This document shows positions 1-55,765 of a DNA stretch of 57,999 nt, one piece after another; the stretch's first letter is position 1; every line of letters starts with the position of its first letter. Made by a program: the position numbers and the translations under genes. This stretch comes from an uncultured Gammaproteobacteria bacterium. GTDB lineage: Bacteria > Patescibacteriota > Microgenomatia > UBA10105 > UBA927. The stretch lies in NCBI GenBank assembly GCA_964385705.1, contig CAYLQG010000002.1, positions 5,224-63,222 on the forward strand. The letters are read 5' to 3'. Below the pieces are notes generated by a model. That model worked only from the letters and a program-made list of their open reading frames with translations. It searched no databases and was not told the origin of the DNA.

Positions 1-155
1 GCCTCACGGAAACTATTATCGAGATTCCCATCGACAACCGGTACTATTTCAAACGGAACTGATAATACGGATAGCGCCTTAATGACGGATTCAATATTTT
101 CCTTAATTGTCTTTTCTTGTTTATAGACAGGAATGATAAGGCTAAACTTTTTCAT
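1..155 (-). CDS. glycosyltransferase family 2, N-terminal fragment (gene runs off the window start)
   Basis: Not in the ORF track because it is under 60 aa. Hand translation of the reverse strand from ATG at 155-153 gives MKKFSLIIPVYKQEKTIKENIESVIKALSVLSVPFEIVPVVDGNLDNSFRE. This is a canonical GT2 start (IIPVY-x-x-E, then VVDG-x-x-D-x-S). It overlaps the 3' end of the upstream flippase gene by 14 nt. Confidence 0.6.
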   Translation of the reverse strand, partial: MKKFSLIIPVYKQEKTIKENIESVIKALSVLSVPFEIVPVVDGNLDNSFRE

Positions 156-1395
156 GAGATGTTGAGACATAATACAAAAGGCTGCCTAAAGCCAATATAA
201 ACGCAATGCCAATGTTAAGAATAATTACCGTCGTAATACTAGAATGGACAAGGACGATACCCACTATCTGCAAAATTGCACAGACTATTGGTATAACCCA
301 TATTCCCGTTTTCCCAATAGCCAAACTAATCATTGAGATGATATTTCCAACCGAGAACAATGCTATGAAAATTCCGAATAGCCCTAAGAGCGCCCCGGCT
401 CCCACATATGCGTTTCCGAAAAGCAATCGTACTATTATATTTGGAAAAAGAAAATATAGCGCCGTGATTGCCGTGGAAACGAGCGCCACGCCGCCTACTG
501 CGGACATTATAAGTTTTTGTGAGACGTTTCCCTTGGCCGTCTGTTCAGACAAAACCGGAAATGTGACCAGTGTTATGGCAGATGAGGCATAATAAATAAC
601 TTTTCCTAATATGGCAAGCGCCGCATACACTCCTGCCTCTTTCGCCCCGAAAAAGTGACGCACTAATATGATATCCGTGGAAAATAATGATGTTATCCCA
701 AGGAGAGTAAGGAGCGTCGGAACGGCAAATTTAAAGGTATCCCGTTTTGTAAGATTTGTCGGCTTGCTTTTGGCATTTATAACAAACTTGAGAGGGAGAA
801 AGTATAATATATACGTCACAATGCTCGTAATGATCGCAGCCAACAAAACTCCGGAGATACCATAATGTGCAAGAGGGACACTTAAGACAACTTTGAGAAT
901 TATAGCGCCTGCTGCAAATCCACTGAACCATATAAACTGCTGATATCCCTGCAACATACTTGCAGTAGCTATTGATAGAAGTGAAAATACAAATAACAAA
1001 TATATCATAACAAAGAGCGTCGTTGAGGAGAGATGTAAGAATGACGTAATTTGCGGAGAAATTAATAACACAACAGGAAGACCCAAAAGACAGATAATTA
1101 CTGAAGCCTTTGTAACACTTACAAAGAGAGATTTTGATTGACCAGTAGACCCATGAGCTTTAAAGCCCGAAACAAATTTCACAAGAACAGTTTGGGCAAC
1201 AACGAGCGGTGTTAAAAAAATATACAAAATTGAAAACAGCGAGGAAAGTTCTCCGTATCCTGCCGGGCCCAACAACCTACCCATCAATAAGTGGTATACA
1301 TATGAACCGACGTTTCCGACCATTGAACCCGCAAAAACGATCGCGCTATCACGTGCTAATGCATGCGAGGATAATTTTTTGATAAATCCCTTCAT
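142..1395 (-). CDS. Wzx-type oligosaccharide flippase (MOP / Polysacc_synt family)
   Basis: 417-aa ORF with ATG at 1395, hydrophobic throughout (about 12 helices). The N-terminus ALARDSAIVFAGSMVGNVGSYVYHLLMGRLLGPAGYGELSSL and the mid-protein FGAKEAGVYAALAILGKV are typical of polysaccharide-biosynthesis flippases. Confidence 0.8.
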   Translation of the reverse strand: MKGFIKKLSSHALARDSAIVFAGSMVGNVGSYVYHLLMGRLLGPAGYGELSSLFSILYIFLTPLVVAQTVLVKFVSGFKAHGSTGQSKSLFVSVTKASVIICLLGLPVVLLISPQITSFLHLSSTTLFVMIYLLFVFSLLSIATASMLQGYQQFIWFSGFAAGAIILKVVLSVPLAHYGISGVLLAAIITSIVTYILYFLPLKFVINAKSKPTNLTKRDTFKFAVPTLLTLLGITSLFSTDIILVRHFFGAKEAGVYAALAILGKVIYYASSAITLVTFPVLSEQTAKGNVSQKLIMSAVGGVALVSTAITALYFLFPNIIVRLLFGNAYVGAGALLGLFGIFIALFSVGNIISMISLAIGKTGIWVIPIVCAILQIVGIVLVHSSITTVIILNIGIAFILALGSLLYYVSTSHEKV

Positions 1396-1403
1396 CGGTG
1401 TAT

Positions 1404-2090
1404 TTAATCTGTAAACCTATATTTAATAAGTGTCCAAAGTGCAACAATTCCATCCCGCCAGGTCAACTTCTTCCCCTCTTCAAACTTGCGGCCGTAATAT
1501 GATATCGGCACCTCGTAAATCTGATGTCCTTTTTTTAATACTTTCACCGTGAGCTCCGGTTCAACATCAAATCGTTTTGAATGAATGGTTACGTCCTTCA
1601 ACGCTTCCCTACGAAATGCCTTATAGCCGGTCTCCATGTCCGTTATATTTGTATTAAAGAGCAGATTCGTGACCAGTGTAACAAACTTATTTCCCTGAGC
1701 ATAGATGAACATTGTTGATAAGTGTGATCCCAAAAACCTCGAGCCATAAACGACAGTCACATGAGTGTGTTTGAATGGCTCAAGAAGTACCGGGTAATCT
1801 GTAGGGCTATACTCCAAATCTGCATCCTGAATGAGGATGATCTCCCCCGATGCCTCCCGTATGCCAATGCTAACGGCACTCCCCTTTCCCTCATTTTTAT
1901 TTTTATAAATAACTTTAATTTTCTTCTCCCACGCCTTCAAGGCGTGGCGAGTTTTATCAGTCGAACCGTCATCAATAACGATTATTTCTTTCTCCCATCC
2001 TTGAAGTCCGGCTCCAACAACACTTTTCAAAACTTCATTGATGGTATTTTCTTCATTATATACCGGGATTATTATTGAGAGCTTTTTCAT
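1404..2090 (-). CDS. GT2 glycosyltransferase, DPM/DPG-synthase-like (candidate polyprenyl-phosphate sugar synthase)
   Basis: 228 aa. Motifs: SIIIPVYNEE, IIVIDDGSTDKT, IQDADLEYSPTDY, VVYGSRF. Its ATG forms an ATGA overlap with the upstream GT4 stop (2087-2090). Confidence 0.8.
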   Translation of the reverse strand: MKKLSIIIPVYNEENTINEVLKSVVGAGLQGWEKEIIVIDDGSTDKTRHALKAWEKKIKVIYKNKNEGKGSAVSIGIREASGEIILIQDADLEYSPTDYPVLLEPFKHTHVTVVYGSRFLGSHLSTMFIYAQGNKFVTLVTNLLFNTNITDMETGYKAFRREALKDVTIHSKRFDVEPELTVKVLKKGHQIYEVPISYYGRKFEEGKKLTWRDGIVALWTLIKYRFTD

Positions 2091-3139
2091 ACAACTGCCC
2101 TTTCATAAGACGCAATTGTGCTTTCTGTGACTTTTTTCCACGTAAACTGTTTTACCCATGTCAGGGATTCCTTAACAAGTGAAGTTCGCTTGTTCTCGGG
2201 TAAATGTACCAAATTACGTATTTCATCCGCAATTTGTTGCGTATTATCAGGTTTAATTAATACGGCGGGACCTGCAATCTCATGAAGAGAAGATGCCTGA
2301 GAAGTTATCACCGGACACCCGCATGCCATCGCTTCAAGAACAGGAAAACCGAACCCTTCATAAAAGGAAGGCATGACAAGACACGTCGCGGATGAGTAGA
2401 TATCAGCAAGCTCGTTATCAGGAATAAATCCGGGCATTATCACCGCATCAGTAATATTAAGTGATCTCATAAACTTTTTGATCTTTAAAACTTCCTCAAG
2501 CTTTTCATCCTGAAATGCGCGCCCCACTAGTACGAGAGGGACACCGCTATATCCTTTGCCGCGAATCACCTGAGCATATGCCTCAAGCAGTCCCGTAACA
2601 TTCTTATTCCAATTGACATCACCTACGTAGAGAATGAATTTGGCGGGCAAACCATACTTAAGCCTGACTGTTTTAACCTCCGGCTTTGTCTTAGGATAAA
2701 ATTGACTCGATGGCGCAAGAGGTATTACGTCGATTTTAGCGATTTCAATTCCGGTAATTGTATGAATATCCTTCTTGGACGATTCAGAATCCGTCAGTAT
2801 CCGTCGGGATTTTCTAAGCAGGCTCTTCTGAATCTCCCATTTGATCGTTCCGCGTATCCCCCGAGGAAACTTATCGGGAAAAACTAATGGTATTAAGTCA
2901 TGAACGGTAATAACGACCGGTTTTGAAACAGCAAAAGGCAGGGTGAGGAAAAAAGGATCAAAGTACGGATAATGAATAAGATCCGTGTTTTCGGGAACCT
3001 TCTGGCCTTTATGGATGAACGCAAAGTGATGCAAACTACCCGATTTTATTAACCCATCCACGAGCTCTCTGGTGTAAACACCAGTGCCACGCGATTTATG
3101 TTCCGATTCCAACGGAGAAACGTCAATTGCTATATTCAT
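2087..3139 (-). CDS. GT4 glycosyltransferase (Glycos_transf_1)
   Basis: The ORF track extends to 3214. The ATG at 3139 (MNIAIDVSPLESEHKSRGTGVYT...) lies 4 nt after the upstream stop (3144) and removes a 71-nt overlap. The C-terminal SFYEGFGFPVLEAMACGCPVITS is the GT4 E-x7-E motif. Confidence 0.85.
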   Translation of the reverse strand: MNIAIDVSPLESEHKSRGTGVYTRELVDGLIKSGSLHHFAFIHKGQKVPENTDLIHYPYFDPFFLTLPFAVSKPVVITVHDLIPLVFPDKFPRGIRGTIKWEIQKSLLRKSRRILTDSESSKKDIHTITGIEIAKIDVIPLAPSSQFYPKTKPEVKTVRLKYGLPAKFILYVGDVNWNKNVTGLLEAYAQVIRGKGYSGVPLVLVGRAFQDEKLEEVLKIKKFMRSLNITDAVIMPGFIPDNELADIYSSATCLVMPSFYEGFGFPVLEAMACGCPVITSQASSLHEIAGPAVLIKPDNTQQIADEIRNLVHLPENKRTSLVKESLTWVKQFTWKKVTESTIASYERAVV

Positions 3140-3143
3140 ACGG

Positions 3144-4724
3144 TCATTTCCGCCTATATCGAAGTATACCCCAACCAAATAGAACAACCAAGCTAATAAC
3201 AGACAATATATCACCGGCTAGCCGGGCAACGGTCTCAGTAAATGTAACTCTAATTGTATGTACCCCATGCGGTACTGAAAAATGGATTACTCCGTCTCTT
3301 AAATAATGAATGGGTACTGTATGACCGTCAACCGTAGCCACCCAACCGGGGAAATAGAGTGTATTGAGGGTAATTACCCCCGAATCGCTCATGGAAACGG
3401 TAAATTGTTTATCCATATATTTCCACTTGTTTTGCCTAATTACATTGCCATTCTCAACAGTGATCGGTGATAACGGCCGCGAAACTTTCCATCCGGTCCA
3501 TATAGTTGAAAAACTATTGCCCATTGAGGAAGTACTGTCCGTAAAATTTGTCCTTGCAAGATAATATGCTTCACTTCTCGGTTGATATAATACCGGTCTC
3601 ACATAAGAACTACTCAATAGTACGGCAACTACCGCGATTACAATGCCAACCCATTGCTTCTTACTGTTACTGACCCAAAAACCTGCCGCAAATGCCGAGA
3701 CTGGGATCACGAACGATAAGAGGCGCCATGGGTATTGTATAAACTGAAGAGGCTTCACGATTACCCAAATAAACTGTGATACCGTTAACATCCCGATGAT
3801 TGAAAGTCCTAAGATTGCATAGAGATAATTCATAAGATATCGAAGACCTGCGGCTTTCGTGCGGCGAACCTGAAAAGCTGCAAGAATGAGACAAACGATT
3901 GGAGCGATGCCAATTTGAAACGATATCTTATTTCCCATGCTCCCGGTACCTGAAAATTCCGTTCCCCATGATGGAATGAGCAGTTCATAAATCTGTACAA
4001 AATGCTCACGAAAATTGACTGTGTTAAGCCCTACGACATATTTTTCTTCAAGGAGTGCGGGTAGCCAAAAATATGCGGATAATCCTAATCCTGCAAACAT
4101 AGCCCACAGCGCTTTTTTATCCCGGATGAGTGCATAACACAAAATGAAAGGCGTATACACCATCGCTAAAATATTATGGCTAAGAATAAGAAGAGCGTAG
4201 CTTACGGCGACAAGAATAAACCGTTTCTTTTCAATGCATAGAAGAACACAAAAAAGAAACGCTGTCGCAAAAATTTCCCCTATCGAGCCACGAACATACA
4301 TATCAACAAACCAATATGGGACAAAGGCTCCTACCGTTGCGCCCACTGCCGCAGGAATAAGGCCAAAGAGCGTAAATAACCATCCAAACAGAGCGGCAAC
4401 TGCAACAATATACCCAATAGCTTGTGCCATTTGGAAAGACCGTACGGCATCGTGAAGTCCGCTGCTTACGGCATCGCCGATATAATTCGGGAATGGATAA
4501 TTAAACTCAAATACCGGAACTCCATAGCCGCTATTGAGGGTCGGTGCCCATCGTGGAAATAGATAACCTTCACGGATCATTCGTGCAAATTCTACAATAC
4601 GAATGATGTGGTATTCCCCGTCGTGCGTCGGAATATAGTTTTTTCCGAATAATGGCACAACCGCAAATATAATGGAAAAAATAAACACGCAAACGGCGAT
4701 AATTGAAAGAACGTTATTTTTCAT
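3144..4724 (-). CDS. PTPS_related-family polytopic membrane protein (GT-C-like)
   Basis: The ORF track extends to 4838. The ATG at 4724 (MKNNVLSIIAV...) makes an ATGA overlap with the upstream stop at 4721. Motifs: IPTHDGEYHIIRIVEFARMIREGYLFPRWAPTLNSGYGVPVFEFNYPFPNY. C-terminal LYFPGWVATVDG...HGVHTIRVTF followed by a final TM helix. Confidence 0.7.
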   Translation of the reverse strand: MKNNVLSIIAVCVFIFSIIFAVVPLFGKNYIPTHDGEYHIIRIVEFARMIREGYLFPRWAPTLNSGYGVPVFEFNYPFPNYIGDAVSSGLHDAVRSFQMAQAIGYIVAVAALFGWLFTLFGLIPAAVGATVGAFVPYWFVDMYVRGSIGEIFATAFLFCVLLCIEKKRFILVAVSYALLILSHNILAMVYTPFILCYALIRDKKALWAMFAGLGLSAYFWLPALLEEKYVVGLNTVNFREHFVQIYELLIPSWGTEFSGTGSMGNKISFQIGIAPIVCLILAAFQVRRTKAAGLRYLMNYLYAILGLSIIGMLTVSQFIWVIVKPLQFIQYPWRLLSFVIPVSAFAAGFWVSNSKKQWVGIVIAVVAVLLSSSYVRPVLYQPRSEAYYLARTNFTDSTSSMGNSFSTIWTGWKVSRPLSPITVENGNVIRQNKWKYMDKQFTVSMSDSGVITLNTLYFPGWVATVDGHTVPIHYLRDGVIHFSVPHGVHTIRVTFTETVARLAGDILSVISLVVLFGWGILRYRRK

Positions 4725-5860
4725 GAGGATTTCCGGGTAAGTTTCCGCACTACGAAAAAGAGAAAGTAAATACCAATCGGAATCGCGGTTACCAGAAATC
4801 GCAACAGCGGGCCCGGGCCTTCGTAATAACCCATCCACATATACGGTAACGCCCGAAGCTCGAGAGCGAATGATAGAACAAACGTAAATTCAAATATGAA
4901 GGTATGACGCTTCATGGGGAGAAAGGCGGCAGTTGATACTAACCATACTGCGTACCAAGGATACAGCTCCTCACGAAGTGGTGCGGCGACGAAAAAAATA
5001 ACGAGAAAGAACCAATATGTAACCCGAAACATCTGCTCCAGCGTAAATTTTCTAAACAGGAATATTGGAGTTAACAGTATTGTCACGAATTTGATCCACC
5101 ACGAAAAGAAAAATGAAATACATCCGAGAACTTTACTTCTCGTATCTTTCCGATTCCACAACACAAGCCCCAGTAAGGCAAACACCATCATGAATATGTC
5201 ATTATGTCCCGACATTAAGGTCTCAATTAGCACGAGCGGATTAAAGGCAAAATAGAGAACATTCTTTAGAGATTTTGTAATACGATAAATGAGATACACC
5301 ATACCAAAATACGCAAGAGCATTTATAAATTTAAACGCAATAATGGTTCCCCATATATTACCAAGGCCCAGATAATGGGGAATCGCGGTTATGGCAAGCC
5401 ATACTGGCCCGTAGAGAGCCAATTTGTTTGCCGCCCGGGTAAATGCAAGATTGGGCTCATTTGGAATTTCGATAGGCATGACGATATACGGATTTTCGTG
5501 ATATGTAAAGGCGACTTTCGCAGTCGTCATGTAATTAAACAAATCATAACTCAGAGCTGGATAGGCTAAAACAAGAATTGCGGCTGCAACAATAATCGTC
5601 CCGATGAAGTTTTTTTTGGACGAAAAAAAATTAACGCCGTATCGCAGAAACATACAATAAAAAAAGAATAGAAGAAGCAATATAATTAAAAACATCATTG
5701 TAGCAACCGGTCGATTTTGATACGCAAGATGATAAAGAGGAGTATGGAAACGGACGAAGATAGGATTTTTTGATAATACCAGGTTCGGATCGATAAACCC
5801 ATAAGAAAATATCGCCAAAACGAAAAGTGTTAGAAAAAATAATACCGTTATAATTGCCAT
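4721..5860 (-). CDS. MptA/MptB-like (DUF2029/GT87-like) GT-C membrane glycosyltransferase candidate
   Basis: 379 aa, about 10 TM helices. Motifs: LSYDLFNYMTTAKVAFTYHENPYIVMP...LALYGPVWL and FNPLVLIETLMSGHNDIFMM. The pattern S-x-D-x-F/Y-x-Y...NPY...YGP matches my memory of mycobacterial polyprenol-P-mannose mannosyltransferases. Clear paralog of 45596..46753. Confidence 0.55.
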   Translation of the reverse strand: MAIITVLFFLTLFVLAIFSYGFIDPNLVLSKNPIFVRFHTPLYHLAYQNRPVATMMFLIILLLLFFFYCMFLRYGVNFFSSKKNFIGTIIVAAAILVLAYPALSYDLFNYMTTAKVAFTYHENPYIVMPIEIPNEPNLAFTRAANKLALYGPVWLAITAIPHYLGLGNIWGTIIAFKFINALAYFGMVYLIYRITKSLKNVLYFAFNPLVLIETLMSGHNDIFMMVFALLGLVLWNRKDTRSKVLGCISFFFSWWIKFVTILLTPIFLFRKFTLEQMFRVTYWFFLVIFFVAAPLREELYPWYAVWLVSTAAFLPMKRHTFIFEFTFVLSFALELRALPYMWMGYYEGPGPLLRFLVTAIPIGIYFLFFVVRKLTRKSS

Positions 5861-5862: not shown

Positions 5863-7821
5863 TTACGGATAACTGTAAACAATATTCGAACTATTTTCAA
5901 ATATCTTCCGAACGCCGATTCCTTTTAAGCCAGCAGGTAGCGCAAAAGGTTTATATGCATATAATATCCCGATCCGATTGGACTTAAGAATATTGTTCAC
6001 GAGTGCCGGATCAAAACTCGTTGCTATTATATCAGCAAGCCTCTGTTTCCCGGAATAATCCACCCCGTGCCTGCCTAAATAATTTTGTCCGGCTAAAAAC
6101 GTGTCATGTGACGTCAGAGCCGACACATAAGACTCATACCCGTCGATCTGAGCCTTGTTAAATACATATACTACTGTATCGGACTTTACCTTCTCACGAA
6201 CGAAATCCAATGCATGTATTTCGCTGTTTGATATAATGGCCGCGGAGTTCTGCAATTCCTTACTGAACTGCTGCATGCGGTAGAATATCCTCGGTATCGT
6301 CATGGCCCCAATGATCAGCAAGATAACTACCGCGATCACCTTGGATTGAGCACGTATCAAACGCTCTAAAATCAAAGCGTTCAGTAAGCTCAAAATAACC
6401 GACGCAGCAAGATATGAATTAAAAATATCCGCGTACGTAATTGGTTGAATAAACAATGTTCCAAACAACGTAGTACCGACAAGCGACGCAAAAAGAAAAA
6501 TGGCGACTTCAGTACCCAAAGACTTTCGGGCGATTCGCCATCCAAACCAGCCAATCGTGCGTAAGCCAAATTGACTGATATAAAAAATACCGAGCATAAT
6601 GAGATTCATTTCTAGTACACGAATATAATTATTATGCTGGAGATATATCAACCTTCGTAGTTCTAAAAAACTTAGCGAAAGATTGGGTTGTACGACAAAC
6701 ATATGCGCCATTTCAAACGGCGCAAAAACTGGTCCGCCGGCACCTGAATTTGTCGGCAGGTAGATAGCAACACTCAGGATGAGCGCAAGGATCGGAGCAA
6801 CGAGTAAAACCCAATTTCTTTTAAAAAGTGCATACAATCCGATCGCAAAAAGACCAATGAGAACCATTATCCCTGAATGGATTTTGCATCCAATGACGAC
6901 ACCAAAGGTAATCCCCGTTAACACGCTGAGTAACACACGCTTAGAACGAACTGTTTGAACGAGTAAAATAATTCCGACGACCGTGATAACGGAAGCAAAC
7001 GCCCGGGGCGGATTCTCAAGAAACATAGTCCCGTCTTCAAGAGGGTGAACGCTAAAATCGACGACATGACGGGTAATAAGCGGAATCGCATAAATAGTAT
7101 CAGATGCAAAATATTGCAAATACATGACGAGGGCTGCCCCAACCATTGATAACCCCGCCATTCTGCCTAACACAAAAAGCAATAGTCCCAGCATCATGGA
7201 CAAAAAAACGCAGATAAAGAAAAATTGAACGGTTAATAACGGCAAACCAAAAACGCGTGAAAAGTCAGCGATAAATAAGTTGGCAAGATAATGATAATTT
7301 GTAAGTAATAATCCGGCCGTACCCGGTTCATTCGGAGGCATATGGCGAATAAGCTCACCCGTAAGCCCCAGATGCCACAGGGCATCGTCAGCTATAAACG
7401 TGTGCCACCCGTCACGGAAAATAAAACCTGACGGTATTGACTGGACTGTTTGAATGACAACACCTGCAATAAACACAACAACCACCCACCAATATTTAGC
7501 AAGTTTACGCAATGATTTCTTCCACTTCGCCTTAGGAACTGAAGCATACGTAAACATGGAGATAATTGTGGAAGTTGCGAGATAAACGTAGCTCATCCAT
7601 CGAATATGGAGTAAACCGAAAAGGTACGCCTGAAGAATCCATAAAACCATGCCAAAACCGACAAAAAGGGTGATCCTATGGAAAGGTGACTGTACTTGAA
7701 TTGATGTTCGCAAAAACAATCGTCCCGGAAAATATAATCCGATTACGATGCCGAATAAAAACCATAAACCTAATAATGCACACATGAGTACACCGCTCGC
7801 TGATGAAATCGCTATACCCAT
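5863..7821 (-). CDS. large polytopic membrane protein, unassigned family (GT-C or polymerase candidate)
   Basis: 652 aa with ATG at 7821. Many hydrophobic helices plus a C-terminal soluble domain of about 130 aa. Loop motif: GWHTFIADDALWHLGLTGELIRHMPPNEPGTAG...NYHY. I cannot name a family. Confidence 0.5.
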   Translation of the reverse strand: MGIAISSASGVLMCALLGLWFLFGIVIGLYFPGRLFLRTSIQVQSPFHRITLFVGFGMVLWILQAYLFGLLHIRWMSYVYLATSTIISMFTYASVPKAKWKKSLRKLAKYWWVVVVFIAGVVIQTVQSIPSGFIFRDGWHTFIADDALWHLGLTGELIRHMPPNEPGTAGLLLTNYHYLANLFIADFSRVFGLPLLTVQFFFICVFLSMMLGLLLFVLGRMAGLSMVGAALVMYLQYFASDTIYAIPLITRHVVDFSVHPLEDGTMFLENPPRAFASVITVVGIILLVQTVRSKRVLLSVLTGITFGVVIGCKIHSGIMVLIGLFAIGLYALFKRNWVLLVAPILALILSVAIYLPTNSGAGGPVFAPFEMAHMFVVQPNLSLSFLELRRLIYLQHNNYIRVLEMNLIMLGIFYISQFGLRTIGWFGWRIARKSLGTEVAIFLFASLVGTTLFGTLFIQPITYADIFNSYLAASVILSLLNALILERLIRAQSKVIAVVILLIIGAMTIPRIFYRMQQFSKELQNSAAIISNSEIHALDFVREKVKSDTVVYVFNKAQIDGYESYVSALTSHDTFLAGQNYLGRHGVDYSGKQRLADIIATSFDPALVNNILKSNRIGILYAYKPFALPAGLKGIGVRKIFENSSNIVYSYP

Positions 7822-44020: not shown

Positions 44021-44038
44021 AAGCAACAGGCAGTCCGT

Positions 44039-45550: not shown

Positions 45551-45595
45551 ATTCAAATTATACCTGAAATGAAGAATTCAGATCAAATTGGCAGT

Positions 45596-49116: not shown

Positions 49117-49131
49117 AATGCAGTAGGACAA

Positions 49132-50250
49132 CTACTTTTTCCAGATTACTTTTGAGTACATAAAATAATTCCAAACCAGAAGAAGCGCAGTACCCCCGAG
49201 GAAGTAAATAAAATAGTGCTGATCTCCGTAGAGTCGGACGCCAAGTGCAATTATCCCCGTCTGGATGACAATAACACCGAATGCGGAAGTACCGTAAAAC
49301 TGCAGGAGTTTCAGAAGATATTGGCGGAAACCGGAAATTTTTTTGTGACCGAATGTCCATAAATTATTGAGATTATAGTTAGAAAAGATTGCGACTGCGG
49401 CCCCGATAAGATTTGCAACTGATGCCGTAAGATGAACCCAATTATGAAATATCATCAAAAGTACTGCGTTGATCCCGAAACCGATACCCCCGACAACAAG
49501 AAATTTGGAAAAAGATCCTGCAAAAATTTCCTGCATGCGGGACTCAAAAATATACAGAAAAATATTTTTGATATACTCTGCCGGGGCGATTTTCGAGTGA
49601 CCGTAAAGCCGGTCCGTAAAATGAAAGGGAACCTCTAAAATCTTGGCACCGTGGTGGATGGCTTTATGTAAAAACGCTATTTGGAAAACGTAGCCGCTGT
49701 ATTTCGACAGCTCAGAATGTATCTCGACATAAAACTTTTTCGTGTATGCCCGGAATCCGCCCGTCCAATCGTTGACTCGAACATGACCCAATCCGAACCG
49801 GACAATAGAATTTCCCAAAACGCTGTATATTTTCCGGTGCATTCCCCAATTTTCCGGAATTGAACCGCCCTTAATATATCTGCTGCCGACGACAAAGTCA
49901 TATCCGTTATCGAGCGCCCGCAAAAAGTCCGGTGCGATCTTCGGATCATGCGACAAATCCGCGTCCATCTGCAATACCGCATCTGCACCCATATGTTCAA
50001 ACGCATAGGTCATTCCGCGAAGTATTGCTTTCCCCAAACCTTCTTTTTTACCGCTTATTATTTCAACGTTCTTATGAGTTTTTTTATACGTTACGACAGT
50101 GTCATAAGTTCCGTCAGGCGACGTGTCATCCACAACAAGATAGGAAATAGTGTGATTGTTAATCACCTTAAATGCAGAAGCTAATTGAGTGAGAAGCGTC
50201 GCGATATTTTCTCGCTCGTTATACGTGGGAACGACAACGACAACCTTCAT
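49132..50250 (-). CDS. polyprenyl-phosphate sugar synthase (DPM1-like GT2) fused to a C-terminal GtrA-like membrane domain
   Basis: The ORF-track start at 50277 is a TTG. The first ATG is at 50250 (MKVVVVVPTYNERENIATL...VVDDTSPDGT...QMDADLSHDP...VVGSRY). The C-terminal ~130 aa (FSKFLVVGGIGFGINAVLLMIFHNWVHL...FSNYNLNNLWTF...) form 4 hydrophobic helices typical of GtrA. Confidence 0.8.
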   Translation of the reverse strand: MKVVVVVPTYNERENIATLLTQLASAFKVINNHTISYLVVDDTSPDGTYDTVVTYKKTHKNVEIISGKKEGLGKAILRGMTYAFEHMGADAVLQMDADLSHDPKIAPDFLRALDNGYDFVVGSRYIKGGSIPENWGMHRKIYSVLGNSIVRFGLGHVRVNDWTGGFRAYTKKFYVEIHSELSKYSGYVFQIAFLHKAIHHGAKILEVPFHFTDRLYGHSKIAPAEYIKNIFLYIFESRMQEIFAGSFSKFLVVGGIGFGINAVLLMIFHNWVHLTASVANLIGAAVAIFSNYNLNNLWTFGHKKISGFRQYLLKLLQFYGTSAFGVIVIQTGIIALGVRLYGDQHYFIYFLGGTALLLVWNYFMYSKVIWKK

Positions 50251-50258
50251 AAATGATG

Positions 50259-51218
50259 CTAAACCCGTTCTCGCCAATAGTTCAGGAGGTCTTCCATTGT
50301 CTTTTTAAAGGAAATCTCAGCTTTCCAACCTGTTTTTGCGACAAATTTAGTGTTATCCCCGAGCAATACCGGAACATCCGACGGGCGCATGCGTGCCGGA
50401 TCCTGTTTAATTTCGACTTTTGTCTTTGACATGGAAAGCAATAAATTCAACATGTCTCCGATCTTAATAGTGGAACCGGTACAGATATTGTAAACGTCCC
50501 CGGGATCGCATTTTTCGACTGCCATAAGATAGGCGCGTACCATATCCCGCACATCGGTGTAATCGCGGCTTGCCTCAAGGTTACCAACATGAATGATAGG
50601 GTCCTGTTTTCCCTTTTCAATAAGCGCTATCTGTTTGGCGAAATTCGACTCAGCAAACGTATCTCCTCGGCGGGGTCCGGTATGGTTAAACCCGCGGGTC
50701 CTGACAACCCGTACTTTATACGATTGATAATACTGATAACCCAAATAGTCCATGGCCAGTTTCGAAACGGCATAGGGGCTTAGCGGTCGGAGCGGATTGG
50801 TTTCTTTAATCGGTATCTCGTTTTCGTGGACCAATCCGTATTCCTCTGATGAACAGGCAATCTGGATGACGGGATCAACGCCGGCCATGCGCACCGCTTC
50901 AAAAAGGTTCGCCGAGCCTACGATGTTCACCTCAAGTGTTACAGAAGGCGACACCCATGAGGTCGGTACAAACGACTGCGCTGCTAAATGGAATATGTAC
51001 ATCGGCTTAATCCGTGATATTGTGGCATAGAGACTATGTGTGTCGAGTAAATCCGCATCCTCAAGGTGCAATTTATTTATAATCGACTCAATATGGTCGG
51101 TTTTACTTCTTGCACGGAGTAATCCATAGACTTCATACCCACGGGACAAGAGTAACTCAGCCAAATGGCTTCCGACAAATCCTGCAATCCCGGTAATAAA
51201 TGCTTTTTTTGCTGCCAT
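50259..51218 (-). CDS. extended SDR of the GDP-mannose 4,6-dehydratase / GDP-4-keto-6-deoxymannose reductase (Gmd/Rmd) family
   Basis: 319 aa. Motifs: AFITGIAGFVGSHLAELLLSRGYEVYGL, SPYAVSKLA (Y-x3-K), RGFNHTGPRRG and QDPARMRPSDVP...TGWKAEISF. Confidence 0.7.
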   Translation of the reverse strand: MAAKKAFITGIAGFVGSHLAELLLSRGYEVYGLLRARSKTDHIESIINKLHLEDADLLDTHSLYATISRIKPMYIFHLAAQSFVPTSWVSPSVTLEVNIVGSANLFEAVRMAGVDPVIQIACSSEEYGLVHENEIPIKETNPLRPLSPYAVSKLAMDYLGYQYYQSYKVRVVRTRGFNHTGPRRGDTFAESNFAKQIALIEKGKQDPIIHVGNLEASRDYTDVRDMVRAYLMAVEKCDPGDVYNICTGSTIKIGDMLNLLLSMSKTKVEIKQDPARMRPSDVPVLLGDNTKFVAKTGWKAEISFKKTMEDLLNYWRERV

Positions 51219-51278: not shown

Positions 51279-52577
51279 TCACATTCTCCCTACACCATAA
51301 TACATGAATCCAAGCTGTTTTACACGTGTAGGCTCATAAATATTTCGCCCATCAAACAGCACGAGGGATTTAAGACCTCTTGCAAGTTTAACAAGATCTA
51401 ACTGTTGGAACTCATTCCATTCCGTTAGAACGACAATGCCGTCTGACCCGTTAGCCGCCTCATACGGATTTTTTGCAAAACTTACGTCCTTTGGCAGTAA
51501 CGGCTTTGCGTTATCCATCGCGACAGGATCGTACGCAACAATTCTGGCACCGTGTTTTACAAGCTCGTTAATGATATTGATAGAAGGCGCCTCGCGCATA
51601 TCATCGGTATTGGGTTTAAATGAAAGTCCGAGAACAGCGAGCGTCTTCTTATGGAGATCATTATTGTAATGCCGTAAAATTTTATCCACAAAATGTTTGC
51701 CTGCCTGTTTATTTATCTCATCTACCGCTTTCAAAAGCGCAAAATTATATCCATGCTCGTCCGATATCGCGATCAGCGCTTTCACATCCTTCGGGAAACA
51801 ACTGCCGCCATATCCGACACCCGGATAAAGAAATCCGCGTCCAATTCTACGATCAAGTCCTACTCCTTCTAACACCTTTTCAACATCAGCGCCGACTTTT
51901 TCCGCCAAAAATCCGACAGCGTTAGCAAATGATATTTTCGTCGAAAGAAGAGAATTACTTGCATATTTAATAAGTTCGGCAGTCTCGACGTTACATAAAA
52001 GCTTTTTGCCGTCAATGGATTTATGAAGTTCAAGGAGAAGTTCGCGGGCCCGATCCGATGTTGTCCCAATAATCACGCGATCAGGATGGAGCGTATCCTC
52101 AATAGCAGTCCCTTCTCTCAAAAACTCAGGGACTGATGCAATAGCGAATGTTGCGCCTTCGGGTTTGTGTTTCGTGAGCACTTGTGAGACCTTTTGATTT
52201 GTACCTGGAGGAACCGTACTTTTCGTAACGACAACTTTATACCCAACTAATGCCTTCCCCACACTTTCAGCTGCCGCGAAAACGCTTGTTAAATCCGCTT
52301 CTCCTGTTGGCTTCGGTGGAGTTCCGACGCAAATAAAAATTATTGAGGAAGGAGCCACCGCCTGTTTATAGTCGAGAGTAAAAATAAGTCGCCCTGCATC
52401 AACATTCCGCTTTACTAATTCCGACAATCCCGGTTCATAGAACGGTGCAATGCCCTTTTTGAGTTTATCAATCTTTTCCTTCGTACGACCGACCACCCAA
52501 ACCGTATTGCCCAAATCGGCAAAAACGGCTGCAGTCACTAGCCCTACATATCCGTGTCCTACAAATGTTACTGTCAT
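51279..52577 (-). CDS. ugd: UDP-glucose 6-dehydrogenase
   Basis: 432 aa. Motifs: VTFVGHGYVGLVTAAVFADLGNTVWVV, FICVGTPPKPTGEADL and GVGYGGSCFPKDVKAL (catalytic Cys motif). C-terminal UDPG_MGDP_dh domain. Confidence 0.85.
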   Translation of the reverse strand: MTVTFVGHGYVGLVTAAVFADLGNTVWVVGRTKEKIDKLKKGIAPFYEPGLSELVKRNVDAGRLIFTLDYKQAVAPSSIIFICVGTPPKPTGEADLTSVFAAAESVGKALVGYKVVVTKSTVPPGTNQKVSQVLTKHKPEGATFAIASVPEFLREGTAIEDTLHPDRVIIGTTSDRARELLLELHKSIDGKKLLCNVETAELIKYASNSLLSTKISFANAVGFLAEKVGADVEKVLEGVGLDRRIGRGFLYPGVGYGGSCFPKDVKALIAISDEHGYNFALLKAVDEINKQAGKHFVDKILRHYNNDLHKKTLAVLGLSFKPNTDDMREAPSINIINELVKHGARIVAYDPVAMDNAKPLLPKDVSFAKNPYEAANGSDGIVVLTEWNEFQQLDLVKLARGLKSLVLFDGRNIYEPTRVKQLGFMYYGVGRM

Positions 52578-52647: not shown

Positions 52648-53535
52648 TCATTCTTCCTGACGTTTTATCTCCTTAATGCCATCCTTGAATGTACGCATTA
52701 AGACGCCAAGAGATGCGATCTTATCATTTTTTAAAGCTGCGTATTGCGGCGTTGGAGCCCGGTCTCGGAACATTTCGGCAAACGGTATCGATTTCACGAG
52801 TGCTGTATCACAACCGAATTCCTTTGCAAGGGTTGTTGCCGCGTCAAACGGAGACAAGGGACCGCTTCCGACAATATGATACATGCCGTGCGCATTGTGG
52901 ATGATAAGCGCATCGACAGCATACGCAATATCATCAATAAACGTCGGTACGAATAATTGGTCTTTTGGAGCCGTAATTCCCTGCCCTGATTGCAGACGTT
53001 CAAGCATTTTATGGACAAAATCTTTTTTTCCCGGTTGCAAAGATTGACCCGTAGGATGAGCACGGTACGGATTTGAAATTCTAATAACCAGTCCTTGAGA
53101 TCCAAGTCCAAGGATGCGTATAGCTCCATCAAATTTGGTTATCGCATACCACCCGAGAGGGTGTGGAGGGTCGTCTTCGGAGTATTCTGATTTTTTTCCG
53201 TCAAAGGCGTAATCAGTGTCTATATAGAGAACTTTTTTTGAATGTTTTATCGCATTATCAATAATTGATTGCGTTGCGGCGACGTTTATCTTCCACGCAA
53301 TACTCTTTTCCCCAAGTGCTCGCTCCTTTTCGGCTCCCTGCACATCGGTATAGGCGGCAAAATGAAAAACCCATGGAGCGTCCGACTTGTCGAAAAAATC
53401 TTTTACACTTTTCGCGTCAGTAATGTCGACACCGGTCTCAAGGCTTAAATTTTCAAATGAATAACGGGAGGTCAAAAGTTCAACTACGCGAGATCCTACT
53501 AGTCCGGATAACCCTGTCCCCAACACTTTGATCAT
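52648..53535 (-). CDS. rmlD: dTDP-4-dehydrorhamnose reductase
   Basis: 295 aa. Motifs: MIKVLGTGLSGLVGSRV and YIDTDYAFDGKKSEYSEDDPPHPLGWYAITKFDG (RmlD-type STDYVFDG...Y-x3-K). Last gene of the rml block. ATGA overlap with the rmlB stop (53532-53535). Confidence 0.7.
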   Translation of the reverse strand: MIKVLGTGLSGLVGSRVVELLTSRYSFENLSLETGVDITDAKSVKDFFDKSDAPWVFHFAAYTDVQGAEKERALGEKSIAWKINVAATQSIIDNAIKHSKKVLYIDTDYAFDGKKSEYSEDDPPHPLGWYAITKFDGAIRILGLGSQGLVIRISNPYRAHPTGQSLQPGKKDFVHKMLERLQSGQGITAPKDQLFVPTFIDDIAYAVDALIIHNAHGMYHIVGSGPLSPFDAATTLAKEFGCDTALVKSIPFAEMFRDRAPTPQYAALKNDKIASLGVLMRTFKDGIKEIKRQEE

Positions 53536-54548
53536 ACGCCGCCTCCATACTGTTTTTTGTAATACTGTTGATATGCACCGGTCTTAACCCGCCGCCACCA
53601 CGACTCATGTTCTTTATACCAGTCTATTGTTTTGAGGAGCCACTCGTCAAAATCATGAAGAGGTGCCCAGGCAAGCTCATCATGAATTTTCGTCCAGTCC
53701 ATTGCATATCTTCGGTCGTGACCGGGCCGGTCTTTCACAAATTCTATACACGACTCATCCTTGCCCATTTTTGCGAGTATTTGCTTTATGACTTCCAGAT
53801 TATTAATATCACGCGTTACACCCCCTACGCAATACGTCTCTCCGATACGCCCTCTCGTAATAACGGCATCGATCGCCCGGCAGTGATCCTCTACATAAAG
53901 CCAATCTCGTACGTTTTTACCATCTCCGTACACCGGCACTTTTTTTCCCTCAATAATGTTCGTTATAGCAAGCGGAATAAACTTTTCAGGAAAGTGATAC
54001 GGTCCGAAATTATTTGAACAATTCGTGATACTTATAGGCAGTCCGTAGGTGTGATAATACGCTCGAACTAAATGATCGGAAGCAGCTTTACTTGCTGAAT
54101 AGGGACTTCTGGGGTCATAATTTGTTCGTTCACTAAATTTACTCGAATTATCGAGTTTAAGTGATCCGAAAACCTCATCAGTCGATACATGATGGAACCG
54201 GGGAACCTTATGAGTGAGTGCGGCATCCAAAAGGATTTGCGTTCCGAGGACATTCGTCCTCACGAAAGGAGTAGGATCATGGATGGATCGGTCAACGTGG
54301 CTTTCAGCAGCAAAATGTACGACGACATCCACCCCGTTCATCGCCCGGTTAACTACATCAGCGTCGCAGATATCCCCATGTATAAACGTATACCGTGGAT
54401 TTTTTTCCACATCAACAAGGTTTTCCAAATTCCCGGCATACGTTAAAGCGTCAAGATTAACGACCTGATCTCCCTCATGTGTACGCATCCAGTAGAGGAT
54501 GAAGTTAGAGCCGATAAACCCTGCGCCGCCGGTGACGAGTAATTTCAT
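53532..54548 (-). CDS. rmlB: dTDP-glucose 4,6-dehydratase
   Basis: 338 aa. Motifs: MKLLVTGGAGFIGSNFILYW, HFAAESHVDRSI, HVSTDEVFG, SPYSASKAASDHLV and RPGHDRRYAMD. Confidence 0.9.
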   Translation of the reverse strand: MKLLVTGGAGFIGSNFILYWMRTHEGDQVVNLDALTYAGNLENLVDVEKNPRYTFIHGDICDADVVNRAMNGVDVVVHFAAESHVDRSIHDPTPFVRTNVLGTQILLDAALTHKVPRFHHVSTDEVFGSLKLDNSSKFSERTNYDPRSPYSASKAASDHLVRAYYHTYGLPISITNCSNNFGPYHFPEKFIPLAITNIIEGKKVPVYGDGKNVRDWLYVEDHCRAIDAVITRGRIGETYCVGGVTRDINNLEVIKQILAKMGKDESCIEFVKDRPGHDRRYAMDWTKIHDELAWAPLHDFDEWLLKTIDWYKEHESWWRRVKTGAYQQYYKKQYGGGV

Positions 54549-54554
54549 AGAGGA

Positions 54555-55031
54555 TTATGTAATCTTCTTGTTTGTGATAGGTAAGCCTTTAACCCAATCA
54601 TATCCGATGTCGGGATCATTATACGGAATGCGTCCTTCCTCTGCCAGTGAATAAACTCCGCTTGTCACATAGACAAGATCAGCCGGACCCTGTAACACTT
54701 TGAGCCCGTGCGCAACGCCGGCTGGGATCTTTAAGACGATATTCTGCTTACCCGGTTCGCCTAAAATAAACTCATTTAACTCTTTGTACGTTTTTGAGGA
54801 CTTTCTTACGTCATAAACAGCAGCCCTTACGACTCCTGAAGCGACATACCACCAATCTATCTGGGTTTTATGAAGATGCCACGCCTTCACGACGCCTTTT
54901 ACCATGAATGAATGCGACATCTGTGCAAATCCTTCTCTAAAGAAGTCGTCTGTAAACCGTATTACTTCCTCAAAATATCCGCGCTCATCAGGATGCCTGA
55001 CCAATTCCTTTATTTTCACCCCGTCAATCAC
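54555..55031 (-). CDS. rmlC: dTDP-4-dehydrorhamnose 3,5-epimerase-like cupin (short form)
   Basis: 158 aa with a GTG start overlapping the rmlA stop (GTGA at 55028-55031). Motif: HPDERGYFEE...KAWHLHKTQIDWWYVASGVVRAAVYDVRKSSKTYKE...IPAGVAHG. It sits between rmlA and rmlB. Confidence 0.7.
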   Translation of the reverse strand: MIDGVKIKELVRHPDERGYFEEVIRFTDDFFREGFAQMSHSFMVKGVVKAWHLHKTQIDWWYVASGVVRAAVYDVRKSSKTYKELNEFILGEPGKQNIVLKIPAGVAHGLKVLQGPADLVYVTSGVYSLAEEGRIPYNDPDIGYDWVKGLPITNKKIT

Positions 55032-55765
55032 AGTTTCTTCTCCTCAACTAATTGAGCAACGTTATTATTCGCTTTGAGTAATTCGTCAAATGAGGTTCCT
55101 GCGTCAATCCACCAATCAATAATCTGACAGTGGAGACTGCCGTCCTTTAAATAAAAATTATTTAGATCAGTCACTTCAAGCTCTCCGCGAAGGGATGGTT
55201 TCAAGCTTTCGATAAAAGAAAATACCCGATTGTCATACATATATATTCCCGTCTGGGCGATATCCGATTTAGGATGGATGGGCTTCTCTTCCAAAGAAAG
55301 AACCTTCCCCTCTTTATCAACTTCTATGACACCGTATTGTTTTGATTCCGTATCAAGATGTATCCCGAAAATCATCGCGCCCTTCTCTAGTTCAGTCATC
55401 TTTTTTACGGAAGGACGGAGATCAAAATTGAAGATATTATCTCCTAAAATGACTAATATCGGTTCGTTTCCAGCAAATTCTTTTGCAAGAGCAATCGCCT
55501 GAGCGATACCGCCTTTTGGATTCTTTTGTATTGCGTAGTAGAGCTTTAAGTCAAATTCCTCACCGGCGCCCAGAAGATTTGCGAAATGCCCCGCATGGTC
55601 AGGCGCTGTCGATAAAAGAACTTCCTCGACTCCGGCGCGATGCATCGCTTCAAGCGGATAATAAATCATCGGCTTGTTGTAAATGGGTAGTAGATGTTTA
55701 TTTGTGACTCGTGTCAACGGCTGAAGTCTGGTGGCCATGCCGCCGGCTAATATAACGCCTTTCAT
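55028..55765 (-). CDS. rmlA: glucose-1-phosphate thymidylyltransferase (short form)
   Basis: 245 aa. Motifs: MKGVILAGGMATRLQPLTRVTNKHLLPIYNKPMIYYPLEAM and LGDNIF. First gene of the rml block. Confidence 0.75.
   Translation of the reverse strand: MKGVILAGGMATRLQPLTRVTNKHLLPIYNKPMIYYPLEAMHRAGVEEVLLSTAPDHAGHFANLLGAGEEFDLKLYYAIQKNPKGGIAQAIALAKEFAGNEPILVILGDNIFNFDLRPSVKKMTELEKGAMIFGIHLDTESKQYGVIEVDKEGKVLSLEEKPIHPKSDIAQTGIYMYDNRVFSFIESLKPSLRGELEVTDLNNFYLKDGSLHCQIIDWWIDAGTSFDELLKANNNVAQLVEEKKL

Follow-up and report, generated by a model that had tools for sequence, protein, structure and literature searches.

What would a bacterium with a minimal genome build with 22 membrane proteins that resemble glycosyltransferases (GTs) of the GT-C fold, all of them encoded in one locus? 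The question is raised by a stretch of 57,999 nucleotides from a metagenome-derived contig of 63,222 nt (positions 5,224 to 63,222 of CAYLQG010000002.1, assembly GCA_964385705.1), which we refer to as the "window". Members of the candidate phyla radiation (CPR), or Patescibacteria, get by with minimal genomes in which many core biosynthetic pathways are missing. The retention, in a lineage of this kind, of a 56-kb block that consists to two-thirds of GT-C genes implies that selection for an elaborate surface glycan is strong, and such a glycan likely affects the integrity of the envelope, the recognition of hosts or partners, and the susceptibility of the cell to phages. The window is best explained as containing the greater part of a conserved locus for the assembly of a cell-envelope glycan, from a groundwater-type Candidatus Gottesmanbacteria bacterium (Microgenomates, CPR/Patescibacteria). 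With modest confidence, drawn from sequence comparison and structural models, we read this locus as an assembly line for a complex surface glycoconjugate, in which the GT-C paralogs would extend and branch one glycan outside the membrane.

From position 142 to 55765, the window is a gap-free block of 42 genes, with a median intergenic gap of 1 nt, overlaps at 19 of the 41 junctions and a coding density of ~100%. In the open reading frame (ORF) listing, 44 non-nested ORFs of at least 150 amino acids tile the window; a nested ORF at 41818-42300, left out of this count, is spurious. Nearly all genes are on the minus strand, the only plus-strand islands being 15739-23194 and 29156-30433. GC content is even across the window, at 0.38-0.45, and scans for tRNAs, Rfam families and tandem repeats found nothing relevant there. 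An earlier note, made from the DNA sequence alone, had drawn attention to 22 multi-helix membrane genes in one locus. All 22 of the genes it named encode proteins of 379-800 amino acids with 6-14 transmembrane segments each, as predicted from hydropathy, a crude predictor, and the AlphaFold2 models of two of them, g5863 and g4721 (genes are named here by their low coordinate), are helical bundles. Together, these genes occupy 37,125 nt, or 67% of the block. The same note had guessed at a CPR-like genome, and the closest named homologs of three different window proteins are indeed from Candidatus Gottesmanbacteria or Microgenomates.

The membrane proteins and the GT-C fold

Four lines of evidence, namely Pfam matches to PMT/PMT_2, PTPS_related and YfhO, a profile match to the crystal structure of ArnT, a network of profile-profile links, and the modelled fold of g5863, support assignment of 20 of the 22 membrane proteins to the GT-C fold by sequence or fold homology. 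The earlier note had sorted the proteins by eye into six groups, A-F, and all-vs-all BLASTP within the window together with profiles largely reproduces this scheme. The core of group A (g12329, g14005, g23216 and g24921) shares 31-39% identity, with g21467 (subgroup A2) at 23-30%. Identities are 23-30% in group B (g3144, g9119, g40785 and g42458), 28-31% in group C (g17473, g30430 and g33749), 23-30% in group D (g10784, g19924, g29156 and g47500) and 32% in group E (g4721 and g45596). The two orphans, g5863 (F1) and g15739 (F2), have no paralog in the window. The scheme needs qualification for two members of group A: by BLASTP, g26597 (A3) has no link to any window paralog and g44039 (A4) is linked only weakly to A; both join through profiles.

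The families that the earlier note had named, PMT_2, PTPS_related, YfhO and GT87, are those returned by a Pfam scan. PMT or PMT_2 is at or above its cutoff in g14005, g21467, g23216, g24921, g29156, g44039 and g47500, and weaker in g10784 and g26597; PTPS_related is found in g9119 and weakly in g40785; YfhO is found in all three group C proteins. A group A profile built from 32 orthologs matches the crystal structure of ArnT (5ezm) at E 3.4e-5, with K69-x-P71, invariant in the group, aligned to the ArnT KPP. NCBIfam returned no equivalog match to ArnT or Pmt for group A. Searches of PDB sequences with profiles of B, C, D, E, F1 and F2 returned noise only. Where the earlier note had asked whether profile and fold searches might assign these proteins to transporters, the families assigned are those of GT-Cs: PMT/PMT_2 and ArnT for A, PTPS_related for B, YfhO for C, and GT-C structures for g5863.

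The groups are also connected to one another. Using hhalign profiles made from window proteins and their homologs in related loci, nine of the ten subgroups (A, A2, A3, A4, B, C, D, F1 and F2) join in a single network. Within the A-D part, probabilities are 100% for A-A2, 98.8% for A-D, 98.4% for A-A4 and 93.8% for A3-A4. Group B is linked to C (99.5%), D (97%) and A4 (95.6%), and F2 is linked to C (97.1%, over 425 columns), B (93.5%) and F1 (91.8%). Group E alone lies outside the network, its best link being D-E at 53%. For F2, orthologs (e.g., at 17933-19651 of L002; labels of this form denote loci in other genomes) carry a precomputed PF19830 DUF6311 label; our own Pfam scan of nine F2 members gave no match at E < 0.01, which conflicts with that label. 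The locus contains several uncharacterised GT-C families: F1, which has no Pfam model, F2, the PTPS_related-like group B, and group D.

An acidic residue in the first loop is a further common trait. The earlier note had listed the motifs WDE, SDE, IDE, GDE, TDE, HDGE, TDDG, HDD, GHD and GDQ after the first transmembrane segment, and all are literally present. In alignments with homologs from other genomes, 21 of the 22 proteins have a column that is 88-100% Asp/Glu between predicted transmembrane segments 1 and 2, so the acidic residues that the note had picked out are conserved. The column lies 5-40 residues after the first segment, or 53 in g15739. In group A, the site is D35-E36, with further acidic positions at D52-E53 and D66/D67; in the g23216 family, D35, E36, D52, E53, D66, D67 and K69 are all invariant. 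Corresponding sites are D39-E40 in A2, D58-E59 in g26597 and D40-E41 in g44039. Group B has its site at D32-D37, or at D73 in g3144 because the start of that ORF is over-extended. Sites in the other groups are D67-D71 in C, D37-D46 in D (in the motif G-D-x-G-R-D), and D24 and D32 in E. In F2, D75 is invariant in an alignment of eight sequences, and a second site, D36, is acidic in 88%. By analogy with the established GT-C structures of ArnT, PMT and PglB, the loop-1 Asp is probably catalytic.

The orphan g5863 defines a large family. A word-based search found 38 F1 homologs, all annotated as "hypothetical" and none with a Pfam domain; a Pfam scan of 35 homologs likewise found no family. An F1 HMM search of a library of 1.84 billion proteins returned 1750 representative clusters below an E-value of 1e-3, of which 702 are also below 1e-30; their proteins are all ~640-680 amino acids long. 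The AlphaFold2 model of g5863 is confident (pLDDT 91, pTM 0.92), and its best 25 Foldseek matches in the PDB are all GT-C enzymes: the oligosaccharyltransferases (OSTs) STT3/PglB/AglB (E 4e-8 to 5e-6), then DPY19, AftA, ArnT and AftD. Transporters appear only at E > 0.2 and probability < 0.15. Matches to OSTs span the whole length, with modest global TM-scores of 0.42-0.46; the scores against AftA are 0.51/0.54. The C-terminal domain matches the C-terminal globular domain of AglB (AglB-S2, 3vu0, TMt 0.54). Conserved motifs of the family are DDAxWH, FPPxEPG, NYHY and PLEDGTMFLENPPRAF, and an invariant DD at 145-146 follows approximately four extra N-terminal helices. At the level of sequence, F1 matches no OST. 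When 35 homologs are aligned, WWDYG is missing after the last transmembrane segment, where there is only "lv.N.g.wD....Yvs" with a W that is not conserved. The identification of g5863 as a true OST of the PglB/AglB type was rejected, since the WWDYG-type motif is not conserved. Judged by its model, F1 is a GT-C whose architecture, with its AglB-like C-terminal domain, resembles that of OSTs; it is not a demonstrated OST.

Group E is a probable, unconfirmed GT-C group. Its homologs have been precomputed as PF26314 MptA_B_family, a model that was not in the Pfam set used for our own scan. In that scan, GT87 matched 3 of 36 group E members at E < 0.01, and g45596 only just passes (25.2 bits; cutoff 25). 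There is no NCBIfam match. The AlphaFold2 model of g4721 has a pLDDT of 89 and a pTM of 0.90, and its conserved residues are D24, D106, E213 and H219-N220-D221.

Donor synthases, flippases and sugar nucleotides

The genes that lie between the membrane proteins bear on what these would use as substrates. The features of the block are listed here in order, with coordinates and strand.

142-1395, minus: Wzx-like MOP flippase, 417 amino acids, 11 predicted transmembrane segments; Polysacc_synt 26.7 bits, just below cutoff
1404-2090, minus: GT2, polyprenyl-phosphate sugar synthase-like, 228 amino acids, soluble; Glycos_transf_2 E 2e-37
2087-3214, minus: GT4 (GT-B fold), cytoplasmic; Glycos_transf_1 E 4e-33 and Glyco_transf_4; start probably over-extended (ortholog 351 amino acids)
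3144-4838, minus: GT-C-like group B (PTPS_related/YfhO-related); 28-30% identity to g9119, g42458 and g40785; C-terminus matches the YfhO C-terminus only; true start probably ~38 codons downstream
4721-5860, minus: group E membrane protein, MptA_B_family-like, 379 amino acids; precomputed PF26314; 32% identity to g45596
5863-7821, minus: group F1, GT-C with OST-like architecture, 640-652 amino acids; AlphaFold2 and Foldseek; without Pfam family
7825-8367, minus: small DUF5667-like protein, 180 amino acids, one transmembrane segment; DUF5667 23 bits, below cutoff
8364-9137, minus: GT2, 257 amino acids; Glycos_transf_2 E 1e-16; adjoins the group B gene in relatives too
9119-10780, minus: GT-C-like group B (PTPS_related); PTPS_related 47.7 bits, above cutoff; D34 invariant
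10784-12325, minus: GT-C-like group D (PMT_2-related); weak PMT_2, group D by BLAST; D41 invariant, motif GxDxxRD
12329-13999, minus: GT-C group A (ArnT/PMT-like); 38-39% identity to g23216 and g14005; D35-E36 conserved
14005-15666, minus: GT-C group A (ArnT/PMT-like); PMT 28.8 bits, above cutoff; D36-E37 conserved
15739-17469, plus: group F2 membrane protein, 576 amino acids, GT-C by remote homology (hhalign); D75 invariant
17473-19875, plus: GT-C group C (YfhO), 800 amino acids; YfhO 56 bits; D67 conserved
19924-21465, plus: GT-C-like group D; BLAST links to g47500 and g10784; D43 invariant
21467-23194, plus: GT-C group A2 (PMT_2); PMT_2 26.5 bits; D39-E40 conserved
23216-24883, minus: GT-C group A (ArnT/PMT-like); PMT 36.9 and PMT_2 34.6 bits
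24921-26600, minus: GT-C group A; PMT 31.2 and PMT_2 28.3 bits; D38-E39 conserved
26597-28207, minus: GT-C-like singleton A3; weak PMT, 18 bits; without BLAST paralog; D58-E59 in loop 1
28140-29078, minus: GT2, C-terminal transmembrane segment at 274-292; Glycos_transf_2 E 1e-22
29156-30433, plus: GT-C-like group D (PMT_2), 425 amino acids; PMT_2 43.9 bits; D37 conserved
30430-32691, minus: GT-C group C (YfhO); YfhO 78 bits
32697-33752, minus: GT4; Glycos_transf_1 E 2e-26; flanked on both sides by YfhO genes in every close relative
33749-36085, minus: GT-C group C (YfhO); YfhO 67.7 bits
36055-36822, 36788-37720 and 37717-38628, minus: three consecutive GT2 genes; Glycos_transf_2 and Glyco_tranf_2_3; g36788 has a weak rhamnosyltransferase-like NCBIfam match
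38632-40077, minus: Wzx-type MOP flippase, 481 amino acids, 11 transmembrane segments; Polysacc_synt_3 E 8.5e-53
40058-40807, minus: GT2, polyprenyl-phosphate sugar synthase-like; best NCBIfam PgfS, ArnC, AglJ, PpgS
40785-42461 and 42458-44026, minus: two GT-C-like group B genes, by BLAST; D32 and D37 conserved
44039-45556, minus: GT-C singleton A4 (PMT_2); PMT_2 42 bits; D40-E41 conserved
45596-46753, minus: group E membrane protein (GT87/MptA_B-like); GT87 25.2 bits, cutoff 25; 32% identity to g4721
46757-47500, minus: GT2, polyprenyl-phosphate sugar synthase-like; best NCBIfam PgfS (78 bits), ArnC, dolichyl-P hexose transferase
47500-49131, minus: GT-C-like group D (PMT_2); PMT_2 38.5 bits; D46 conserved
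49132-50277, minus: DPMS-type polyprenyl-phosphate hexose synthase; GT2 catalytic domain fused to GtrA/DPMS transmembrane domain
50259-51218, minus: short-chain dehydrogenase/reductase, Rmd-like (GDP-4-keto-6-deoxy-D-mannose reductase-like); 2pk3 E 1e-79
51279-52577, minus: UDP-glucose/GDP-mannose dehydrogenase family (Ugd-like); three Pfam domains, E 1e-60, 4e-35 and 1e-33
52648-53535, minus: RmlD; RmlD_sub_bind E 5e-49
53532-54548, minus: RmlB; GDP_Man_Dehyd/Epimerase E 1e-82
54555-55031, minus: RmlC; dTDP_sugar_isom E 1e-25
55028-55765, minus: RmlA; NTP_transferase E 2e-56

The GTG/TTG starts of g3144, g26597, g2087 and g5863 are probably over-extended by ~12-40 codons relative to orthologs, leading to apparent overlaps of 118 nt (3144/4721), 68 nt (26597/28140) and 71 nt (2087/3144).

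GT-C enzymes use lipid-phosphate-linked sugars. The locus has four candidate polyprenyl-phosphate-sugar synthases. The clearest is the DPMS-type g49132, which matches Glycos_transf_2 and GtrA_DPMS_TM in Pfam and aligns over its full length (residues 9-379 to 22-372 of 374) with the Pyrococcus furiosus DPMS 5mlz (E 4.8e-41), followed by ArnC and GtrB. The other three are the GT2 proteins g1404, g40058 and g46757, whose best matches are AglJ, a haloarchaeal dolichyl-P hexose transferase, PgfS, ArnC and PpgS. All of these matches are below equivalog cutoffs, including those of g1404, for which AglJ (128 bits) ranks ahead of dolichyl-P hexose transferase, PgfS and ArnC. The presence of a DPMS homolog and three similar GT2s in the same locus indirectly supports the idea that the GT-C proteins would use donors of this kind. 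These four enzymes also strengthen the central claim of the earlier note, that of a multi-step extracytoplasmic glycan system, which is supported. The locus has no free-standing GtrA-like ORF; its only GtrA-like element is the domain fused to g49132, and with a coding density of ~100% there is no room for a free one.

The remaining soluble GTs are the GT2s g8364, g28140, g36055, g36788 and g37717, and the GT4s g2087 and g32697, which we regard as general cytoplasmic enzymes. This brings the number of complete soluble GTs to 11 (nine GT2 and two GT4), one fewer than the 12 claimed previously; a possible twelfth is a 10-codon fragment at the edge of the window. Both of the Wzx flippases claimed previously are present. 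The match of g38632 is strong, and the weak match of g142 is offset by an ortholog in L091 that is clearly positive, matching PF01943 and PF13440.

The sugar-nucleotide genes at the right end of the block, also recognized in the earlier note, were found by Pfam and homology. They encode steps toward dTDP-L-rhamnose (RmlABCD), UDP-hexuronic acid (Ugd) and a GDP-6-deoxyhexose (the Rmd-like reductase). The closest solved homolog of g50259 is the GDP-6-deoxy-D-lyxo-4-hexulose reductase Rmd (2pk3); the protein falls below the gmd equivalog cutoff. Because it adjoins Ugd, g50259 was also considered as a UDP-xylose synthase, an identification rejected in view of the Rmd homology. Neither GDP-mannose 4,6-dehydratase nor GDP-mannose pyrophosphorylase is encoded in the window.

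To the right of the glycan block are a CAP-domain protein (56027-56965) with N- and C-terminal transmembrane segments and an Ala/Pro/Gln/Thr-rich linker, a 198-amino-acid membrane-anchored Thr/Ser-rich protein (57076-57672) with a precomputed PF27226 AF_1845 label, and a TsaB-like fragment (57784-57993). That the Ser/Thr-rich surface proteins of this flank could be glycosylation targets is pure speculation.

Relatives of the locus

The earlier note had proposed a search of related genomes for syntenic loci, and the gene order proves to be shared with independent assemblies. Across ~0-36 kb of the window, it recurs in at least five of them, at 44-81% protein identity. The ortholog of g23216 is 70% identical in GCA_040960175.1 and GCA_040960375.1 and 63% identical in GCA_030679255.1, with gene order kept; the 311-kb ENA contig_63774 has the genes of the window's left third in the same order, with identities of 53-81%; and Logan contigs reproduce the gene order too. 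Proteins identical to those encoded near 1.4 kb, 49-54.5 kb and 57 kb of the window lie beside the same neighbors on short, independent contigs; for the Ugd-like protein of g51279, the identical copy is on an independent ENA contig. Direct independent confirmation covers the locus except for 36-49 kb.

Loci of this type are widespread among Microgenomates. Scanning a genome collection with the group A profile returned >537 relatives, the best 80 of which fall in six Microgenomates lineages (Gottesman-, Curtiss-, Woese-, Levy-, Chisholm- and Roizmanbacteria). In the near-full-length loci among these 80 (~20-22 kb), 5-13 of the 12-18 ORFs per neighborhood are homologous to GT-C-like genes of the window. 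Dense GT-C clustering is a lineage-wide feature of Microgenomates and is not unique to the source genome. If this genome is ~1 Mb, as are the complete Gottesmanbacteria chromosomes among the matches (995 and 1,088 kb), the 56-kb locus would make up ~5% of it. Many TPA_asm records titled "uncultured Gammaproteobacteria/Pseudomonadales bacterium" (L007, L009, L012 and others) carry clearly Microgenomates-like loci, as do two SMAG records labelled Limnocylindrales and Acidiferrales; these titles are probably placeholders or wrong.

A core order, A-A-D-B-GT2-DUF5667-E-B(-GT4-GT2-Wzx), is shared by Gottesman- and Roizmanbacteria and, in part, by Levybacteria. The small DUF5667-like gene has a fixed position in this core in Gottesman- and Roizmanbacteria, between the GT2 gene and the MptA_B-like gene (9455-9997 in L092; also L040, L052 and L071). 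Around the core, different groups have expanded in tandem (L059, L071 and L027): a Levybacterium has four consecutive D-type genes, and five D-type genes in a 21-kb locus; a Roizmanbacterium has four consecutive A-type genes; and a Curtissbacterium locus has seven A-type genes. The conserved order and the lineage-specific expansions suggest a common backbone with variable elaboration. Close relatives differ at specific positions. F1 is absent from its place in some or is located elsewhere, and an F1-like gene of 683 amino acids stands at the place of g19924. At the place of g29156, there is an S-adenosylmethionine-dependent methyltransferase (7356-8219 in L002; 9118-9993 in L005/L006), which hints at methylated sugars in some strains. 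In one relative (L091/L092, 15714-21140), the locus continues past the left-end Wzx with GT2, GT4, DegT aminotransferase, hexapeptide acetyltransferase and GFO/IDH/MocA oxidoreductase genes that look like an acetamido-sugar pathway. The locus in the window is thus probably truncated at its left edge.

One glycan or many decorations, and the comparison with known systems

How might these components work together? In the assembly line that we modestly favor, GT2 and GT4 enzymes at the cytoplasmic face would build a short polyprenyl-diphosphate-linked oligosaccharide, which Wzx would flip. In parallel, the DPMS-like GT2s would load single sugars onto polyprenyl phosphate, and these carriers would also be flipped, possibly by the GtrA-like domain fused in g49132. 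On the outer face, each GT-C paralog would then add one sugar, in one linkage, from a polyprenyl-phosphate-sugar. At only 23-39% identity, the paralogs appear old and are probably specialised. Transfer or ligation of a larger unit may fall to F1, with its OST-like architecture. The end product would be an extended, branched surface glycoconjugate (a polysaccharide, lipoglycan or glycoprotein glycan), in parallel to mycobacterial lipomannan/lipoarabinomannan (LM/LAM) and arabinogalactan (AG).

Several observations weigh against this reading. First, Pfam and NCBIfam searches of the window found no priming phosphoglycosyltransferase, Wzy, chain-length regulator, O-antigen-type ligase or LCP ligase, which leaves the route for a polyprenyl-diphosphate-linked intermediate incomplete here; the priming enzyme, Wzy and the chain-length regulator could be encoded elsewhere in the genome. 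Second, there is one GtrA-like domain for four putative polyprenyl-phosphate-sugar synthases. Third, the PDB profile searches turned up no solved relative for groups B, C, D and F2. Fourth, the g4721 model has no significant fold match in the PDB, with ArnT at E 2.2 and a probability of 0.35-0.44. Fifth, gene content differs between close relatives by single genes, a pattern that also fits independent decorating modules.

Such modules are the strongest alternative, somewhat less probable in our estimation and still a substantial contender. Under this alternative, the locus would be a set of units for decoration or protein glycosylation that work largely on their own, each consisting of a GT-C and a nearby GT2, as in Gtr, CsbB-GtcA-YfhO or Pmt/Ppm1. 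Single sugars would be placed onto separate acceptors (S-layer proteins, pilins, or teichoic-acid-like or peptidoglycan-linked polymers), and the expansion of paralogs would serve surface diversification, e.g., evasion of phages or predators, or host recognition. GT2 genes do adjoin GT-C genes at 8364/9119, 40058/40785, 46757/47500, 28140/26597 and 36055/33749, and members of the YfhO and PMT families are known to act in single-sugar decoration and protein O-mannosylation (PMC5836110, PMC8035078, PMC5882110). The expansion of different groups in different lineages (D in Levybacteria, A in Roizmanbacteria), the gain or loss of single GT-C genes between close relatives, and the lack of a polymerase or ligase for a long polymer in the window are all as expected for modules. 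By contrast, ~11 core genes stand in the same order even in lineages that diverged deeply, suggesting an integrated pathway rather than interchangeable parts. Having only one GtrA-like domain also fits poorly with modules, and the presence of two Wzx flippases alongside seven cytoplasmic GTs that are not DPMS-like implies an intermediate at the level of an oligosaccharide.

It is very unlikely that the 22 membrane proteins are for the most part transporters, polymerases or structural proteins rather than glycosyltransferases, with GT-C labels that are over-annotation of hydrophobic proteins. Many Pfam scores are near or below cutoff, and the lack of solved relatives by sequence extends to B, C, D, E and F2, with no significant PDB match for the group E model. 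Against this stand above-cutoff Pfam GT-C matches for 15 proteins (PMT/PMT_2, PTPS_related and YfhO; g45596 with marginal GT87), the match of the group A profile to ArnT, the exclusive match of the modelled orphan g5863 to GT-C enzymes, an acidic residue conserved after the first transmembrane segment in every group (in F1, after the extra helices), and the co-location of the membrane genes with DPMS-type donor synthases. For groups A-D and F, this alternative is already largely refuted. Lastly, an assembly artefact, i.e., a chimeric join or repeats from several organisms that were collapsed or duplicated, would be conceivable for a metagenome-derived contig and is very unlikely, because the order of ~0-36 kb recurs in independent assemblies, identical proteins lie on short independent contigs, GC content is even, and paralogs that are only 23-39% identical make repeat-induced misassembly implausible; the chimera that the earlier note had asked about is not supported.

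Returning to the assembly line, the closest functional analogy is the LM/LAM and AG machinery of mycobacteria and corynebacteria (Ppm1, PimE, MptA/B/C, EmbA/B/C and AftA-D). There, too, many GT-Cs act in series on the outer face with polyprenyl-monophosphate sugars supplied by a GT2 synthase. The locus likewise has a DPMS/Ppm1-like synthase, its group E may correspond to the MptA_B_family/GT87-like members, and the F1 model resembles AftA. The differences are considerable. No window ORF has a Pfam or NCBIfam match to Emb/Aft, Arabinose_trans or UbiA-type DPPR synthase, so the locus lacks both Emb/Aft sequence matches and a decaprenyl-phosphoarabinose pathway; PMT_2/ArnT-like, PTPS_related and YfhO proteins dominate it instead. 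Whereas the LM/LAM-AG genes are scattered, those of the locus form one 56-kb operon-like block. The host probably has a ~1-Mb genome and has no mycolic-acid envelope, and the implied sugars are rhamnose, a uronic acid and a 6-deoxyhexose.

The three-component systems, GtrA/GtrB/GtrX of enterobacterial phages and CsbB-GtcA-YfhO, which acts on lipoteichoic and wall teichoic acids in Firmicutes, likewise bring together a GT2 synthase, a GtrA-type domain and a GT-C. The locus resembles CsbB-GtcA-YfhO further in having YfhO-family members (group C) and GT2 genes that adjoin GT-C genes. This scheme fits individual steps of the locus. As a whole, the locus departs from systems that have one GT-C each: it has 22 GT-C-like genes for four candidate synthases, no free GtrA, and Wzx together with many other cytoplasmic GTs. 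Group A invites comparison with ArnC/ArnT, Ppm1/Pmt and Pgf of Streptococcus mutans, since it matches ArnT and PMT/PMT_2, its loop-1 Asp-Glu pair recalls the DE motif of PMT, and the GT2s resemble ArnC and PgfS. Unlike the ArnC/ArnT system, the locus has no ArnA/B/D and belongs to a monoderm-type CPR host without lipid A; in addition, the C-terminal domains and remaining sequence of group A are far from characterised members of ArnT/Pmt.

Two further pathways are partly matched. As in STT3/PglB/AglB, g5863 has a GT-C_A membrane core and an AglB-like C-terminal domain, with Wzx in the same locus; unlike those enzymes, it has no WWDYG-type motif, an xWD that is only partly conserved, and extra N-terminal helices before the DD. 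The Wzx/Wzy pathway is matched in its Wzx and not in its initiating phosphoglycosyltransferase, Wzy or chain-length regulator, none of which is in the window. Durairaj et al. (2023) described, as "component 27", a large uncharacterised bacterial transmembrane family of ~650 amino acids that is YfhO-like and STT3/PglB-like and linked to "glycosyltransferase family 39" (PMC10584680). Groups C, B, and F1 or F2 may overlap with it (A0A7X7MB17), which we offer as a lead only. Our search of the literature on CPR and Microgenomates found no description of a GT-C expansion or of this type of locus, an absence that is not proof, given that most papers in subscription journals were outside the search; a search for PF26314 found nothing pertinent.

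We tentatively suggest, as a broader proposition of somewhat less than even likelihood, that Microgenomates, with genomes of ~1 Mb, devote ~4-6% of their DNA to an independently arisen functional counterpart of mycobacterial LAM/arabinogalactan, with >20 GT-Cs of at least seven families, including F1, and a product central to the envelope and probably to host attachment. In any case, the locus offers structural biologists and enzymologists many uncharacterised GT-C families and provides targets for glycan chemistry with Microgenomates enrichments. Set beside the known systems, it appears to be a polyprenyl-phosphate-sugar-dependent extracytoplasmic glycan system that is unusual in its scale and its mix of families and belongs to a minimal-genome lineage; at least one of its families, F1, has no annotation so far.

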